Assembly: GCF_055900595.2 (NCBI RefSeq)
Contig: NZ_CM148325.1
Strand: one strand, 5' to 3'
Length of the DNA: 64,000 nt
Within the stretch, counting starts at the first letter, position 1, and every line of letters starts with the position of its first letter. Shown here piece by piece: positions 24,216 through 58,958 of the stretch. A program made the position numbers and the translations under genes. The notes beneath the pieces are model-generated. The model saw only the letters and a program-made list of their open reading frames with translations. It did no database searches and was not told the origin of the DNA.

Positions 24216-24500
24216 TTAATGGGAGGCAAGTTCCCGGAAAAAGGCAGGATTTTCTTTAATTGTGGCAAGTACTTTTGCAGCCAATCCCGTAGGATTTCTT
24301 CGCTTCGATTCCCAGCTTTTAATGGTATCCACACTGGTTCCCAGAGCTTTTGCCATCTCACTTTGCGAAACGTTGAGTTGCTCACGAATAGCTTTAACAT
24401 CCGCAATTTCGTAGCGGGTCACCCGTGCAGGTTCTTTTAAACCTTGTTTAATCTCGACAGCCTCTTCCAGAGAGGTTTTCAACTCATCAAAAAAACTCAT
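24216..24500 (-). CDS. XRE-type helix-turn-helix antitoxin (HigA-like)
   Basis: 94 aa from ATG at 24500 (MSFFDELKTSLEEAVEIKQGLKEPARVTRYEIADVKAIREQLNVSQSEMAKALGTSVDTIKSWESKRRNPTGLAAKVLATIKENPAFFRELASH); SD GAGG 8 nt upstream; starts 1 nt after the toxin stop. Confidence 0.75.
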   Translation of the reverse strand: MSFFDELKTSLEEAVEIKQGLKEPARVTRYEIADVKAIREQLNVSQSEMAKALGTSVDTIKSWESKRRNPTGLAAKVLATIKENPAFFRELASH

Positions 24501-24501
24501 T

Positions 24502-24834
24502 TTATACCTCACCTTTGAGCAGTTTCGTCAACTTCTTTAGTTGAGCTTTTTCCGTATCTGTCAGACTGTCTTTGGCATTCTTCGGATAGGCCATAATCAA
24601 ATAAATAATCTCTTCCGTCGCCAGAAAGTAAATTATTCTGACACTACCACTTTTTCCCTGTGAACCCGCAGCCATTCGGACTTTACGCAATCCACCAGTC
24701 TGCTGAATGAGATCACCTTTATCGGGAGTTCCGATGAGTTCTTTTTGCAATTCCTTTAATTCATCATCGGTTGCAATCTGCTTGATCTGACGCGTAAACA
24801 TTGGCGTCTCTATAAATATTATCGCCTTGCCCAT
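24502..24834 (-). CDS. RelE/ParE-superfamily toxin, HigB-like (Gp49-type)
   Basis: 110 aa from ATG at 24834 (MGKAIIFIETPMFTRQIKQIATDDELKELQKELIGTPDKGDLIQQTGGLRKVRMAAGSQGKSGSVRIIYFLATEEIIYLIMAYPKNAKDSLTDTEKAQLKKLTKLLKGEV); conserved GGLRKxR…GKSGxxRxIY core; SD GGAGG upstream. Confidence 0.75.
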   Translation of the reverse strand: MGKAIIFIETPMFTRQIKQIATDDELKELQKELIGTPDKGDLIQQTGGLRKVRMAAGSQGKSGSVRIIYFLATEEIIYLIMAYPKNAKDSLTDTEKAQLKKLTKLLKGEV

Positions 24835-24850
24835 TACCCCTCCCTGGCAG

Positions 24851-44584: not shown

Positions 44585-45616
44585 ATGTCTGCATTTACCC
44601 CGGCAAGTGAAGTCTTGCTGCGTCACAGTGATGATTTCGAACAAAGCCGTATTCTTTTTGCCGGAGACTTACAGGATGACCTGCCCGCGCGTTTAGATAC
44701 CGCGGCCAGCCGTGCTCATACCCAGCAATTCCACCACTGGCAGGTGTTAAGCCGCCAAATGGGTGATAACGCCCGTTTTAGCCTGGTGGCAACGGCGGAT
44801 GACGTCGCAGATTGCGATACGCTGATTTACTACTGGCCGAAGAACAAACCGGAAGCCCAGTTTCAGTTAATGAATTTACTTTCTCTGCTGCCGGTGGGGA
44901 CGGATATTTTTGTTGTTGGCGAGAACCGCAGCGGCGTGCGCAGCGCCGAGCAGATGCTTGCAGATTATGCGCCGTTGAATAAAGTCGACAGCGCCCGTCG
45001 CTGTGGCCTCTATTTTGGTCGTCTGGAAAAACAGCCGGTATTTGATGCCGATAAATTCTGGGGCGAATACAGCGTCGATGGCCTGACGGTGAAAACGCTG
45101 CCTGGCGTGTTTAGCCGCGACGGTCTGGATGTCGGTAGCCAGTTGCTGCTCTCGACGTTAACTCCGCACACGAAAGGTAAAGTGCTGGATGTCGGCTGCG
45201 GTGCAGGCGTTCTTTCAGTTGCCTTTGCACGCCACTCACCGAAGATTCGTCTCACGTTGTGCGATGTTTCTGCGCCAGCGGTTGAAGCCAGCCGTGCAAC
45301 ACTTGCGGCCAACGGTATTGAAGGTGAAGTCTTTGCCAGCAACGTCTTTTCTGAGGTGAAAGGTCGTTTTGATATGATCATCTCCAATCCGCCGTTCCAC
45401 GATGGGATGCAAACCAGTCTGGATGCAGCACAAACGCTGATTCGCGGCGCGGTGCGTCATCTTAACAGCGGCGGCGAGCTGCGAATTGTAGCGAACGCCT
45501 TCCTGCCTTACCCGGACGTGCTGGATGAGACATTTGGCTTCCACGAAGTGATCGCGCAAACCGGGCGCTTCAAGGTGTATCGCGCCATTATGACCCGCCA
45601 GGCGAAGAAAGGTTAA
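44585..45616 (+). CDS. rsmC: 16S rRNA (guanine1207-N2)-methyltransferase RsmC
   Basis: 343-aa ORF with SAM-binding [11 protein letters not shown] and NPPFH motifs. Confidence 0.92.
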
Positions 45617-45634
45617 GTATCCCGCCGCAAGCCT

Positions 45635-45790
<156 letters not shown>

Positions 45791-45916
45791 CGTTAGTTTC
45801 CTGATGGACATTTTTCCAGCAATTACACCTCCGTCGATAATTAACTATTGACGAAAAGCTGAAAACCACTAGAATGCGCCTCCGTGGTAGCAATTCTTTT
45901 TAAGAATTGATGGTAT

Positions 45917-46003
45917 GCGAAGGTGGCGGAATTGGTAGACGCGCTAGCTTCAGGTGTTAGTGTCCTTACGGACGTGGGGGTTCAAGTCCCCCCCCTCGCA
46001 CCA
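45917..46003 (+). tRNA. leuV: tRNA-Leu (anticodon CAG)
   Basis: GCGAAGGTGGCGGAATTGGTAGACGCGCTAGCTTCAGGTGTTAGTGTCCTTACGGACGTGGGGGTTCAAGTCCCCCCCCTCGCACCA; copy 1 of 3. Confidence 0.93.
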
Positions 46004-46031
46004 AAAACCACGTTGATATTGCTCGCACTGG

Positions 46032-46118
46032 GCGAAGGTGGCGGAATTGGTAGACGCGCTAGCTTCAGGTGTTAGTGTTCTTACGGACGTGGGGGTTCAA
46101 GTCCCCCCCCTCGCACCA
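46032..46118 (+). tRNA. leuP: tRNA-Leu (anticodon CAG), variable-arm variant (T at 46079)
   Basis: Identical to the flanking copies except C to T at tRNA position 48. Confidence 0.9.
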
Positions 46119-46151
46119 AACGAGGCGATATCAAAAAAGTAAGATGACTGT

Positions 46152-46238
46152 GCGAAGGTGGCGGAATTGGTAGACGCGCTAGCTTCAGGTGTTAGTGTCC
46201 TTACGGACGTGGGGGTTCAAGTCCCCCCCCTCGCACCA
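46152..46238 (+). tRNA. leuQ: tRNA-Leu (anticodon CAG)
   Basis: Third tandem copy, identical to copy 1. Confidence 0.93.
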
Positions 46239-46276
46239 ATTATCTTTACTTCCTTTCTTGTTTCTTCCTTGTTTTT

Positions 46277-46513
46277 TCATCCCTGATTCCAGTTCATTAT
46301 CATCAGCATAACGCCAGCAATAAGCGCCAGGCACGATGGTAGCAAAATGTAATGCCGTAACTGTTTGTGATACAACATCGCTGGCGTCAACACCAATCCC
46401 ATCAGAATAACAATCCGCCACTGATCCGGCGATATATCCACATACGTCAGCCCTGCAATCAGCAATCCTGGCAGCAACACTCCCCAACCACTGCCCAGCA
46501 TACGTTGCAACAT
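46277..46513 (-). CDS. yjjZ: small membrane protein YjjZ
   Basis: 78 aa from internal Met: MLQRMLGSGWGVLLPGLLIAGLTYVDISPDQWRIVILMGLVLTPAMLYHKQLRHYILLPSCLALIAGVMLMIMNWNQG. Confidence 0.7.
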   Translation of the reverse strand: MLQRMLGSGWGVLLPGLLIAGLTYVDISPDQWRIVILMGLVLTPAMLYHKQLRHYILLPSCLALIAGVMLMIMNWNQG

Positions 46514-46530
46514 GGTTTCATCTCTTTCAT

Positions 46531-46570
46531 TGATAATGATAACCAATATCATATGATAATTTTTATCATT
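46531..46570. promoter_or_regulatory. Fur box(es) in the yjjZ / fhuF control region
   Basis: TGATAATGATAACCAATATCATATGATAATTTTTATCATT, 17/19 match to GATAATGATAATCATTATC; second Fur-like site GCAATCATTATCATT at 46621-46635. Confidence 0.7.
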
Positions 46571-46653
46571 TGCAAGCCAGAGAAATCCCTTGCTATCGGG
46601 TAAACCTATCGTTAGGATTAGCAATCATTATCATTTAGATTACTATCCCGATT

Positions 46654-47442
46654 ATGGCCTATCGTTCCGCACCGCTCTATGAAGATGTTATCTGGCGAAC
46701 GCATCTCCAGCCGCAGGATCCTGGACTTGCAGAAGCAGTACGGTCGACGATCGCAGAAAATCGTGAACATTTGCTGGAGTTTATCCGCCTGGATGAACCC
46801 GCCCCATTTAGTGCCCTGACGCTGGCGCAATGGTCATCACCGAATGCGTTAAGTTCTCTGTTAGCTGTTTATTCCGATCATATCTACCGCAATCAACCAA
46901 CGATGATCCGCGAGAATAAGCCGCTGATCTCCCTGTGGGCGCAATGGTACATCGGCCTGATGGTGCCGCCATTAATGCTGGCCCTGTTAACGCAGGAAAA
47001 AGCATTAGATGTGTCGCCGGAACATTTCCACGTTGAGTTTCACGAAACCGGACGCGCCGCCTGTTTCTGGGTCGATGTGTATGAAGATAAAAACGCAACA
47101 CCACATTCACCGCAGCAGCGAATGGAAACGTTAATTAGCAAGGCGCTTGTTCCGGTTGTGCAAGCATTAGAAGCGACTGGAGAAATTAACGGTAAACTTA
47201 TCTGGAGTAATACCGGTTATTTGATCAACTGGTATCTGACTGAGATGAAACAGTTGCTCGGCGAGGCGACAGTTGAATCGCTGCGCCATGCCCTCTTTTT
47301 TGAGAAAACGCTCACTACCGGTGAAGATAATCCACTCTGGCGTACCGTGGTGCTGCGCGACGGCCTGCTGGTGCGCCGCACTTGCTGCCAGCGTTATCGC
47401 TTGCCGGATGTGCAGCAATGTGGTGACTGTACGCTGAAATAG
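46654..47442 (+). CDS. fhuF: ferric-siderophore reductase FhuF (C-terminal Cys cluster for 2Fe-2S)
   Basis: 262-aa ORF MAYRSAPLYEDVIWRTHLQP… ending …RRTCCQRYRLPDVQQCGDCTLK. Confidence 0.92.
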   Translation: MAYRSAPLYEDVIWRTHLQPQDPGLAEAVRSTIAENREHLLEFIRLDEPAPFSALTLAQWSSPNALSSLLAVYSDHIYRNQPTMIRENKPLISLWAQWYIGLMVPPLMLALLTQEKALDVSPEHFHVEFHETGRAACFWVDVYEDKNATPHSPQQRMETLISKALVPVVQALEATGEINGKLIWSNTGYLINWYLTEMKQLLGEATVESLRHALFFEKTLTTGEDNPLWRTVVLRDGLLVRRTCCQRYRLPDVQQCGDCTLK

Positions 47443-47480
47443 AAAAATTTGCCGGGGAAGTAAACCCGGCATTAAGCGTA

Positions 47481-48158
47481 TTAATAGGGGTGCAACACGT
47501 TACTTGCTTCGCAATGACGCATACATAACAGAATGTCTGCGGCCTCCAACAACCCTGCATCAGAACTGACGCCCAGTTTCGACATTACATTAAATTTATG
47601 CGCGCGGATCGTTTTGATATTGCGTTTAAGCTGCTCGGCAATTTGTGTCATTGAGTAGCCACGCGACATAAAGCGCAATATTTCTCTCTCCGTCGGGCTT
47701 AGCGTCCGGCTTTGGTTAATGTACCACTGATTGTTCAATCGGTCGGTCGCCTGACGCACACCATTTAATGACAAAAAGAGTTCCTGATGAAAAATCTCCA
47801 GCGTCGACGCTTTACTTAATACACCGTCCAGCGGTGATGGCGACAATGAACCAATCAGCCGAGCTTCAATATCATCATCCGCAATAACTAAACGTCGGGT
47901 ACGCGGAAACTTAATCGCCAGTTCAGTCAGGCAAGATAATCCCTCTCTGCGTTTACTTCTCATGGCAGAAAAAGAAAAAATGACCGCCGCAAACGAGATC
48001 CGCGACATGGCATCCTGAAATGACTCCTGACTGGTATAGATATGGAGCTTATAAGGGTTACCTGCAAACTTTCTGAATAAACTCTCAATACCGATACTGC
48101 TCATGACGCATTTTTCTATGAGTGCGACATTTCTCTTCTTAATTCGGCTGTGTTCCAT
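47481..48158 (-). CDS. bglJ: LuxR-family transcriptional activator BglJ
   Basis: 225-aa ORF with C-terminal LuxR HTH (…[42 protein letters not shown]…). Confidence 0.9.
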
Positions 48159-48841
48159 TCTGCGGCATCTCCATAAACAGAAGGCAAGTTAAGTTCTCTT
48201 GCACCCTGCGCGCTATTTATCCATGCATACATTTCAGCGTTGCTGTGAATTGCCAGTCGACGCATCGCACTGTTTTTTTGGGCGCTGATAGTTTTATTAC
48301 TTTTCTTAAGCAATGAAGCTATCTGGTTGATGCCCCATCCTTTACCTAATAGCCGCAGTACTTTGCGCTCTGAAAGAGTGAGAATAACGGAGCGATAGCT
48401 AAAATCATGCGTTTCAGTCATTGCCGGAGAGGTCAGCATGGCACTGATACGCTCTGCGTGCGTATTGCCAGAACGCACGGTCTTGACCAGATTCTCAATG
48501 GGTTCAACATCAGACAATAATGTCGCCGTAGGGCACATGAGCAGTTCTACCGCCTGGGAATACCAGGAGCGTGACACCATGAAAACCCAGTGAATTTCCC
48601 GATATTGTGAGATTAAAGAATAATAATGCTCACAAACAGAACGAGGATCTTCACTTTCACCGGCTAAATCTGCAATAACTAATCCGGAACGACGTAATTG
48701 TAATAAGGTAAGGTCCTCCGCAGAGGCGCTGGATATTATTTTATATTCAGGGAAGTGAGTCCTCATGACCTCTTTTAACCCTGCTTGCATAACAGGTATT
48801 TTACTGATAACAATTCCATTTTTGCAGCATCCTGGCAACAT
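48116..48841 (-). CDS. yjjQ: LuxR-family regulator YjjQ
   Basis: 241-aa ORF with C-terminal LuxR HTH; overlaps bglJ start (yjjQ-bglJ operon). Confidence 0.9.
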
Positions 48842-49396
48842 ATTTCCTCCACATCCACTGTCTAAAAATCATGATGGTCTATTCAGGATATTCATTCCTT
48901 AAATGTTTCCAGCAAATTAATAGATTAAGCGAATAAATTATCCTTTGCATTCACTTTCATATCAGCATACTCCTGCTGCACAATAACTCCACTGCATGTG
49001 TCAGAAGGTTAGCATCAAATGATAACCTGGTGAAATAGCCTGGAGACATTTAAAATATCTACATTAAGTTGTTAGAAATACTTAATGAAAAACAGAATCC
49101 TCATTCATTTAATTTATAATTAACTGATATCCCTTCCCGCAGGATGCAAAATCACACAATCAATATTTATTCAATAAAATCTGATAGTTTTAACTTGTTA
49201 AAATTAAAAAACGCGCCCAGTTATCTTTTATCCTGATTCGTAAGGGCTAAACAATAAATTCATTATAGTGATAATATTCATGCGATAATTTGTTTGCGGC
49301 GAGAGATAATTCGCTTTTTAACACCGAGCTTCTCCCGATAACCAGGATTAATCAGCGCAATTTTGATCTTAACCTGCCGCAAAACAACCGCGCTTC

Positions 49397-50694
<1,298 letters not shown>

Positions 50695-57596: not shown

Positions 57597-58958
57597 GTGG
57601 AAAAAGAAAATATCACCCTCGATCCGCGTTCTTCATTTACTCCATCTTCGTCGGCAGATATTCCCGTGCCACCAGATGGATTAGTTCAACGCAGTACCCG
57701 AATTAAACGCATTCAAACCACCGCCATGTTGTTATTATTTTTTGCGGCGGTAATCAATTATCTCGACCGCAGTTCACTGTCGGTAGCAAATTTAACGATT
57801 CGTGAAGAATTGGGATTAAGTGCCACCGAAATCGGCGCTTTGCTCTCCGTGTTTTCACTCGCTTACGGGATTGCGCAACTTCCTTGCGGCCCACTATTGG
57901 ATCGTAAAGGCCCGCGCCTGATGCTGGGACTGGGGATGTTCTTCTGGTCACTGTTCCAGGCAATGTCTGGCATGGTGCACAGCTTTACGCAGTTCGTGTT
58001 GGTGCGTATCGGTATGGGAATTGGTGAAGCACCAATGAACCCATGCGGTGTAAAAGTCATTAACGACTGGTTCAACATCAAAGAGCGCGGACGCCCGATG
58101 GGCTTCTTCAACGCAGCTTCTACCATTGGCGTTGCCGTAAGCCCACCGATTCTGGCGGCGATGATGCTGGTGATGGGCTGGCGCGGGATGTTTATTACCA
58201 TTGGTGTGTTGGGTATTTTTCTCGCCATCGGTTGGTATATGCTCTATCGCAACCGCGAGCACGTAGAACTGACTGCCGTTGAACAAGCTTATCTCAATGC
58301 CGGTAGCGTCAATGCCCGCCGTGATCCACTCAGTTTTGCTGAATGGCGCAGCCTGTTCCGTAACCGCACAATGTGGGGAATGATGCTCGGATTCAGTGGC
58401 ATCAATTACACTGCGTGGCTGTATCTGGCCTGGCTTCCTGGTTACCTGCAAACAGCCTATAACCTGGATTTAAAAAGCACAGGATTGATGGCGGCTATCC
58501 CTTTCCTGTTTGGGGCTGCCGGGATGCTGGTCAACGGTTACGTTACCGACTGGCTGGTCAAAGGGGGAATGGCTCCGATTAAAAGCCGTAAGATCTGCAT
58601 TATTGCCGGGATGTTCTGTTCTGCCGCCTTTACGCTGGTCGTACCGCAAGCGACAACATCCATGACAGCGGTTCTGCTGATTGGCATGGCACTGTTCTGT
58701 ATTCACTTTGCCGGAACATCCTGCTGGGGCTTGATCCACGTCGCAGTTGCTTCTCGCATGACTGCGTCGGTGGGCAGTATCCAAAACTTTGCCAGCTTCA
58801 TCTGCGCTTCTTTCGCGCCGATCATTACTGGTTTTATTGTCGATACCACCCACTCATTCCGTCTGGCGCTAATCATCTGCGGTTGCGTCACCGCGGCGGG
58901 TGCACTGGCATACATCTTCCTGGTTCGTCAGCCGATCAACGACCCACGTAAAGATTAA
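57597..58958 (+). CDS. lgoT: MFS L-galactonate transporter LgoT (YjjL)
   Basis: 453-aa polytopic ORF, major facilitator superfamily. Confidence 0.88.
   Translation: MEKENITLDPRSSFTPSSSADIPVPPDGLVQRSTRIKRIQTTAMLLLFFAAVINYLDRSSLSVANLTIREELGLSATEIGALLSVFSLAYGIAQLPCGPLLDRKGPRLMLGLGMFFWSLFQAMSGMVHSFTQFVLVRIGMGIGEAPMNPCGVKVINDWFNIKERGRPMGFFNAASTIGVAVSPPILAAMMLVMGWRGMFITIGVLGIFLAIGWYMLYRNREHVELTAVEQAYLNAGSVNARRDPLSFAEWRSLFRNRTMWGMMLGFSGINYTAWLYLAWLPGYLQTAYNLDLKSTGLMAAIPFLFGAAGMLVNGYVTDWLVKGGMAPIKSRKICIIAGMFCSAAFTLVVPQATTSMTAVLLIGMALFCIHFAGTSCWGLIHVAVASRMTASVGSIQNFASFICASFAPIITGFIVDTTHSFRLALIICGCVTAAGALAYIFLVRQPINDPRKD

Follow-up and report, generated by a model that had tools for sequence, protein, structure and literature searches.

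The region between yjjQ and yjjP in the window (the whole stretch of 64,000 nucleotides that was analysed) is very probably the divergent regulatory region of the E. coli yjjQ-bglJ and yjjPB operons, which is silenced by H-NS, relieved by LeuO and without a gene of its own. This region is already known and characterised, and the conserved modules described below refine the known system without changing it. Our analysis adds a boundary of 618 bp and places published ChIP peaks and IS points on the sequence. Moreover, a cross-species footprint pins the candidate core elements to a few bases and could guide site-directed tests. The locus is of interest as a textbook-style example of silencing by H-NS that a specific antagonist, LeuO, counteracts. 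Under its control are two LuxR-type regulators with links to motility, virulence and the activation of bgl, as well as a succinate exporter repeatedly targeted by adaptive IS insertions in the mouse gut.

According to open reading frames and RefSeq annotation, positions 48842-49396 are non-coding and lie between the divergent yjjQ-bglJ (minus strand) and yjjP-yjjB (plus strand) genes. The locus is made up of the following features.

47481 to 48158, minus strand: bglJ, second gene of the yjjQ-bglJ operon (ORF, RefSeq, NCBIfam)
48116 to 48841, minus strand: yjjQ, LuxR/FixJ-type HTH regulator, first gene of the operon and controlled from the gap
48842 to 49459, no strand: full yjjQ/yjjP intergenic control region, 618 bp, GC 0.343
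49460 to 50230, plus strand: yjjP in its 256-aa form, first gene of yjjPB (RefSeq)
50221 to 50694, plus strand: yjjB, second gene of yjjPB (RefSeq, NCBIfam)

The first 43 nt of bglJ overlap the 3′ end of yjjQ. NCBIfam equivalog models matched both BglJ (382.6 bits, cutoff 176) and YjjB (PRK09917, 325 bits, cutoff 249), and the HTH of YjjQ resembles the BglJ, RcsB and NarL models. YjjP and YjjB are annotated as putative succinate exporters in MG1655. By megablast, 5424 of the 5426 complete E. coli genomes contain a 1.1-kb stretch around the gap, split or partial matches being seen in ~25 genomes, and RefSeq names the same neighbours in each record inspected. A plasmid search for the region returned mislabelled chromosomal records only. 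The window aligns collinearly with E. coli LR-58-1 at 99.5% identity; its identity to most other E. coli, K-12 among them, is ~96%. In both K-12 and the window the gap measures 618 bp, and the two versions are 95.5% identical with no indels. Thus, published K-12 coordinates can be transferred to the window, the NC_000913.3 position being 4652318 minus the window position. The corresponding U00096.2 position is the NC_000913.3 position minus 1977. This offset agrees with a published IS table, in which 4600992 is given as −111 from the yjjP ATG.

The original prediction had described a gap of 555 bp. Its left boundary stood, while the right boundary moved from 49396 to 49459, because both RefSeq and cross-species conservation back a yjjP start at ATG 49460 and hence a gap of 618 bp (48842-49459). 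RefSeq, MG1655 included, places the start at this ATG (256 aa), whereas the first ATG of the long open reading frame is located at 49397 (277 aa). Positions 48842-49396 are therefore the full gap minus its last 63 bp. For the cross-species comparison, one genome per species was scanned with YjjQ, which gave 80 loci, 75 of them keeping both yjjP and yjjQ. An ATG equivalent to 49460 is kept in nearly all of these 75 enterobacterial loci; the upstream ATG, equivalent to 49397, is rarely present. In many genera, in-frame stops occur 1-20 codons upstream of the conserved yjjP ATG. Furthermore, ATG 49397 overlaps a conserved −10-like element. The value of 555 bp is obtained when the older yjjP start (277 aa) is used, and the 2008 study by Stratmann and colleagues is said to have used this length for the region as well. 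Based on RefSeq gene calls, the 64-kb window contains 60 gaps with a median of 90.5 bp, of which the one studied here (618 bp) is the longest; the next-longest divergent gap spans 278 bp. The region had rightly been singled out as an unusually long divergent intergenic region, and it had also been described correctly as free of open reading frames of 60 aa or more, the longest within 48842-49396 having 40 aa.

H-NS repression and LeuO activation of yjjQ-bglJ, as had been proposed for this region, match the published view of the orthologous K-12 region (95.5% identical). Citing papers credit this regulation to Stratmann, Madhusudan and Schnetz (2008, J Bacteriol 190:926), and the divergent yjjP gene is also named in the title of that study. 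Myers et al. (2013, PMC3688515) place an aerobic H-NS ChIP-chip region at 4600344-4604525, equivalent to window positions 45816-49997, and anaerobic H-NS regions at 4600469-4601215 and 4601378-4604641, equivalent to 49126-49872 and 45700-48963. The aerobic domain covers 4.2 kb, reaching from the leu tRNA genes to within the 5′ part of yjjP. The same study gives a σ70 ChIP-seq peak at 4600950 (window 49391), which rises from 163 to 907 under anaerobic conditions, and FNR ChIP-seq summits at 4600895 and 4600950 (window 49446 and 49391), for which yjjP is listed as estimated target. The FNR peak was called by 2/3 peak callers with a PatSer ln p of −7.95, and the FNR ChIP-chip signal increased from 0.32 to 0.66 when both hns and stpA were mutated (Myers et al. 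2013, PMC3688515). In addition, an RpoD-holoenzyme SELEX peak was reported in the spacer denoted 'yjjP <HNS> yjjQ' (Shimada et al. 2014). All occupancy data originate from K-12, from which the centre of the gap in the window strain differs by 8%. Since the K-12 region carries both H-NS, as seen by ChIP-chip, and a σ70 peak at ~49391, the interpretation of the gap as an H-NS/LeuO control region stands. The expectation that it holds regulatory sites is likewise supported by conserved promoter-like elements together with the K-12 σ70 and FNR peaks.

On the yjjP side, three elements stand out.

49268 to 49281, plus strand: island (G/A)TGATAATATTCAT, extended −10-like (TGnTAATAT), from the Escherichia alignment
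49363 to 49376, plus strand: FNR-like half-site TTGATCTTAACCTG (TTGAT-N4-nnCnn), centred at 49369.5, from conservation
49398 to 49406, plus strand: extended −10-like element TGATACAAA (TGnTAnAA), conserved and at a fixed distance of 28-29 nt from TTGATC

The hexamer TTGATC (49363-49368) is invariant in 75/75 species, and a CC at +10/+11, counted from its first base, is kept in 65-70 of the 75. The full pattern of TTGATC and TGnTAnAA occurs in 54 species, with a spacer of 29 nt in 50 and of 28 nt in 4 of them. In 20 of the other 21 species, mostly of the Klebsiella and Kluyvera type, GGTAAAAG or a close variant occupies the position of TGnTAnAA. Transcription of yjjP, as predicted from the −10-like element, would start at ~49411-49413. 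Relative to this start the TTGATC site would be centred at ~−41.5 to −43.5, which is a class II position. TTGATC-N29-TGnTAnAA is probably the yjjP core promoter with an FNR site. Reading TTGATC as a σ70 −35 hexamer was rejected, as nothing −10-like is found 16-18 nt downstream of it, in the window or in other genera. Further upstream, the last 13 nt of the island at 49268-49281, TGATAATATTCAT, are invariant within Escherichia (6 lineages), and a promoter scan returned the match TAAACA-16-GATAAT at 49248-49275. The island may represent a second, upstream yjjP promoter, which we regard as putative.

Which factor recognises TTGATC deserves a closer look. Compared with TTGAT-N4-ATCAA, TTGATCTTAACCTG agrees at 7/10 positions, the left half being perfect and the right half weak (2/5). 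Matches with up to 3 mismatches to this consensus occur about once per 200 bp of the window, so an assignment to FNR would not be credible from sequence alone. A serious alternative, to which we give somewhat less than an even chance, is that TTGATC has a role unrelated to FNR, be it as a LeuO site overlapping the yjjP promoter, as a site for BasR or another factor, or as a Dam GATC-dependent element. The poor fit of the right half-site (2/5) agrees with such a reading, as does the C of TTGATC, which is invariant though not needed by FNR. The abstract of the 2008 study by Stratmann and colleagues reportedly places one LeuO site across the yjjP promoter, which would also count for a factor other than FNR. 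BasR is listed as a known yjjP regulator by Myers et al. (2013, PMC3688515), who file yjjP among the FNR peaks without an FNR-dependent expression change in glucose minimal medium.

Several observations argue against a factor other than FNR. An FNR ChIP-seq summit lies 21 bp from the centre of the TTGATC site (76 bp if the other summit is taken), and within the gap no better FNR match than TTGATCTTAACCTG was found. Moreover, σ70 occupancy is higher anaerobically, and so is yjjPB mRNA, with aerobic/anaerobic ratios of 0.49 for yjjP and 0.43 for yjjB (Myers et al. 2013, PMC3688515), and the spacing of TTGATC would correspond to a class II position. Thus, invariance of TTGATC, its fixed spacing and the published FNR and σ70 peaks 21 bp away make FNR the leading candidate, and we rate this predicted assignment as slightly favoured.

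Further evidence on the yjjP side comes from IS elements, which inserted recurrently into the gap during colonisation of the mouse gut (Lourenço et al. 2016). Expression of yjjP was up 2-fold in one IS-insertion clone, and the insertions were located at −111 (IS1), −185 (IS2) and −256 (IS5) from the yjjP ATG (Lourenço et al. 2016). On the window these points map to 49349, 49275 and 49207, all a short distance upstream of TTGATC. All three insertions spare the TTGATC/−10 module and sever the AT-rich centre from it. This is the pattern that would be expected if IS insertion relieved H-NS silencing of yjjPB. In the natural isolate PS3Tanimalfeces2, IS1 directly abuts yjjP, and the entire gap has been lost together with yjjQ and the 5′ part of bglJ.

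The segment severed by these insertions is also the most AT-rich part of the gap.

49097 to 49335, no strand: AT-richest centre, ~72% AT, GC 0.27-0.29

Overall, the GC content of 48842-49396 is 0.339 as compared to 0.515 for the whole window, and only 0.3% of all 555-bp windows are as AT-rich. The window-wide minimum for stretches of this size (0.321 at 48734-49288) overlaps the gap, in agreement with the AT-richness ascribed to it in the original prediction. Among gaps of at least 100 bp, its GC of 0.343 ranks second-lowest and is not extreme; the unusual feature is the length of the AT-rich stretch. In contrast to AT-richness itself, the abundance of A/T tracts, which had been taken as a mark of H-NS-silenced promoters, did not hold up as a separate signal. 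The gap has 12 homopolymer A/T tracts of at least 4 nt as compared to 9.6 ± 2.8 in shuffled sequences (P = 0.24), so composition accounts for them, and a tract excess was rejected. TpA steps are depleted in the gap. The H-NS high-affinity motif TCGATAAATT has 4 matches with up to 2 mismatches in the gap, ~5 times the window average, and was likewise discarded as evidence, since the AT content explains the matches. We infer from its composition that 49097-49335 could be the segment on which H-NS nucleates and from which it spreads.

The yjjP / yjjQ-bglJ arrangement is conserved across Enterobacteriaceae. In the 53 species with adjacent yjjP and yjjQ, the gap measures 387-709 bp and has a median GC of 0.364. 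When each gap is divided into thirds, the third next to yjjQ has a mean GC of 0.352 over these species, the central one 0.281 and the one next to yjjP 0.468. A longer gap of ~2.6 kb is seen in Klebsiella, Raoultella, Kluyvera, Citrobacter amalonaticus and Intestinirhabdus, where pobA and a gene for an AraC-type regulator are inserted between yjjP and yjjQ. Comparison of 6 lineages within Escherichia shows conservation over the 250 bp closest to yjjQ and the 120 bp closest to yjjP, and variability in 49097-49335. Identity to K-12 amounts to 91.7% in this central part and to 98% at the two ends. Hence, the AT composition of the centre is maintained while its sequence is not, a pattern that would fit H-NS, which reads AT-richness and DNA shape and not a strict motif.

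These comparisons bear on the view that the gap is neutral DNA separating two ordinary promoters, and that it owes its length and AT-richness to mutational bias or to an old horizontal acquisition of yjjQ-bglJ and not to a role in silencing. A centre that evolves ~4 times faster than the ends (8.3% versus 2% divergence from K-12) would agree with this, as would A/T tracts and H-NS motif matches that do not go beyond composition. Furthermore, yjjQ and bglJ are AT-rich themselves (GC 0.445 and 0.454), and the insertion of pobA and its regulator gene between the two halves in Klebsiella and relatives indicates that contiguity is not essential. Nevertheless, we consider a neutral spacer very improbable. 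A length of at least 387 bp in 53/53 species with adjacent genes speaks against it, and the centre is on average the AT-richest third (mean GC 0.281) despite its unconserved sequence. In addition, both H-NS repression and H-NS ChIP signals have been published for the gap, FNR occupancy goes up on deletion of hns and stpA, and yjjP expression is raised by the adaptive IS insertions, which are clustered in the centre.

Less probable still is that an unannotated small protein or small RNA gene explains the length of the gap. Several open reading frames of 21-40 aa are present, one of which (30 aa, 48957-49049, minus strand) is intact in 5/6 Escherichia sequences, and 49040-49095 (minus strand) folds slightly better than shuffled sequences (z = −2.3). 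However, each of the small open reading frames is disrupted in other lineages among the 6 Escherichia compared, through loss of the start or through stops or frameshifts, and the 30-aa frame has 13/30 residues changed and is frameshifted in one lineage. No Rfam family matched within the gap, even at E ≤ 1; the only matches were three tRNA-Leu genes and REP-type naRNA4 repeats ~3 kb from the gap. A scan of the gap for terminators found no terminator-like site, the putative 5′ UTRs fold no better than shuffled sequences, and RefSeq annotates nothing within the gap in MG1655, XL1-Blue or LR-58-1. A small RNA or small gene hidden in the gap is therefore unlikely, and a control region without a gene remains the preferred reading.

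On the yjjQ side of this control region, conservation and sequence scans point to the following elements.

48846 to 48850, minus strand: yjjQ Shine-Dalgarno sequence GGAGG, in ~90% of the 27 genera-representative sequences aligned
48937 to 48965, minus strand: yjjQ promoter-like site CTGATA-17-GATAAT, from a consensus scan, position predicted
49046 to 49086, no strand: best-conserved yjjQ-side block, Escherichia footprint 0.9 invariant, from the cross-genus alignment
49072 to 49084, no strand: palindrome TTAGAAATACTTA (TAAG-N5-CTAA on the yjjQ strand), ~240 nt upstream of yjjQ

For yjjQ-bglJ, Shimada et al. (2014) picked the same hexamers, CTGATA-17-GATAAT. GGATAAT, which contains the −10 of the predicted yjjQ promoter (−10-like element at 48937-48942, minus strand), is kept in Escherichia, Citrobacter and Salmonella, and transcription from this promoter would produce a 5′ UTR of ~90 nt. 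Promoter-like sites number 6 in the gap as compared to 3.0 ± 2.0 in shuffled sequences. The motif T[TA]AG-N5-CTAA occurs 198-261 nt upstream of the yjjQ ATG in 37/75 species, 1.4 being expected from shuffled sequences, a contrast that is inflated by shared ancestry. Judging from the alignments, the block at 49046-49086 with its palindrome is probably a binding site for a regulator. A comparison by hand of TTAGAAATACTTA with the RcsAB box led us to reject that identity; the left half agrees with the consensus, but the right half is shifted by one base.

In the regulatory scheme that we propose, a core promoter with nearby factor sites at each end would flank an unusually long AT-rich centre. 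H-NS bound to the AT-rich DNA, as part of a ~4-kb domain in K-12, would keep both promoters largely off, and LeuO bound within the gap would counteract silencing of yjjQ-bglJ. At the other end, TTGATC located 29 nt upstream of the extended −10-like element would form the yjjPB core promoter, with a site for an FNR-type activator at ~−42 that might be partly masked by H-NS. An IS insertion between the yjjP module and the AT-rich centre would then raise yjjP expression. In this scheme the exact positions of the promoters, the pairing of TTGATC with FNR and the mode of IS action are to be taken as predicted.

A bolder and rather doubtful extension would be that yjjPB is driven by an ancient, H-NS-masked promoter module of the FNR class II type across Enterobacteriaceae, and that the palindrome is a FixJ/NarL-type site feeding back on yjjQ-bglJ. 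If so, anaerobic induction of yjjPB would occur only once silencing has been relieved by LeuO, by temperature or, as during gut adaptation, by IS insertion, and TAAG-N5-CTAA would be bound by YjjQ itself or by an RcsB partner. The conserved modules are not named in the H-NS/LeuO literature consulted, in which Stratmann et al. (2008) is represented by the papers that cite it.

The closest known system is the yjjP / yjjQ-bglJ region of K-12 (Stratmann et al. 2008), which is the same locus with the same neighbours. The window differs from it in carrying the allele of another strain, with the 8% divergence concentrated in the AT-rich centre. On the yjjP side, the gap resembles H-NS-masked FNR sites such as hlyE, which share an FNR peak within an H-NS-bound region and a rise in the hns stpA mutant (Myers et al. 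2013). In contrast to masked sites of the hlyE type, FNR at yjjP is already detectable in the wild type and would act through a weak half-site, and an FNR-dependent change in yjjP expression was not recorded. The bgl operon and leuO promoters follow the same logic as the gap, H-NS on AT-rich DNA silencing transcription and a specific DNA-binding antagonist (LeuO and/or BglJ-RcsB) relieving it, and together with yjjQ-bglJ they form part of one circuit of LeuO, BglJ-RcsB and H-NS. Unlike at bgl and leuO, no BglJ-RcsB site has been reported in the yjjQ/yjjP gap. At bgl, upstream and downstream H-NS sites surround one promoter, whereas in the gap two divergent promoters flank a central AT-rich segment. 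As with yjjP, an upstream IS insertion activates bgl.

The intergenic region between the divergent yjjQ-bglJ (minus strand) and yjjP-yjjB (plus strand) operons spans 48842-49459 with the current yjjP start. The 63 nt between the start codon of the old 277-aa yjjP annotation and that of the current 256-aa one (49397-49459) are non-coding as judged by conservation, and the old ATG overlaps a conserved TGnTAnAA element resembling a -10 box. Because these 63 nt separate the two starts, the length of 555 bp found in the literature compares with 618 bp for the current gap.

Adaptive IS5, IS2 and IS1 insertions were described in E. coli from the mouse gut (Lourenço et al. 2016), which, mapped from K-12, correspond to positions 49207, 49275 and 49349 of the window. 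All three insertion points are located just 5′ of the invariant TTGATC (49363), and the insertions set the predicted yjjP core promoter apart from the AT-rich centre of the region. An IS1 element also adjoins yjjP in a natural isolate, E. coli PS3Tanimalfeces2 (locus L086, 3250-4000), with a deletion that takes in the first yjjP codons, the entire intergenic region, yjjQ and the 5′ portion of bglJ. Split or partial matches to the yjjQ/yjjP stretch were found in about 25 further genomes. Escherichia albertii NBRC 107761 (L009) retains yjjQ and the intergenic region and carries a clean 572-bp deletion within yjjP, equivalent to window positions 49498-50069, which removes roughly codons 13-203. 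In this strain, yjjP thus appears to be a pseudogene.

Under anaerobic conditions, the H-NS domain seen by ChIP-chip splits in two, leaving approx. 160 bp unbound (window 48963-49126, mapped from K-12; Myers et al. 2013, PMC3688515). The unbound stretch coincides with a conserved block upstream of yjjQ (49046-49086). The break could stem from the resolution of the array, or a factor could occupy this stretch.

The yjjZ and fhuF genes (46277-47442) are 91.1% and 91.5% identical to their K-12 counterparts and represent a locally divergent allele, possibly originating from recombination; the neighbouring tRNA-Leu genes are 100% and dnaT/dnaC about 98.5-98.9% identical. Identity to K-12 is only 82% in the rsmC/leuV spacer, where REP-type repeats at 45601-45777 match Rfam naRNA4 (70.3 bits, above the gathering score) alongside a weaker copy. 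Elsewhere, the annotation of the closest, collinear E. coli genome, LR-58-1, places genes for a RelE/ParE-family toxin and a NadS-family protein between ettA and nadR (collinear position 24217-24835) and marks lgoT (corresponding to about 57597-58958) as a pseudogene that contains an internal stop.

In some other enterobacteria, the two operons are further apart. The gap is about 2.6 kb in Klebsiella, Raoultella, Kluyvera, Citrobacter amalonaticus and Intestinirhabdus (loci L072, L030, L043, L081, L010, L027 and others), where yjjP and yjjQ are separated by a gene for an AraC-type regulator and by pobA (4-hydroxybenzoate 3-monooxygenase, 650 bits), and measures 1.8 kb in Pseudocitrobacter. The conserved gene-proximal elements are kept at both sides.
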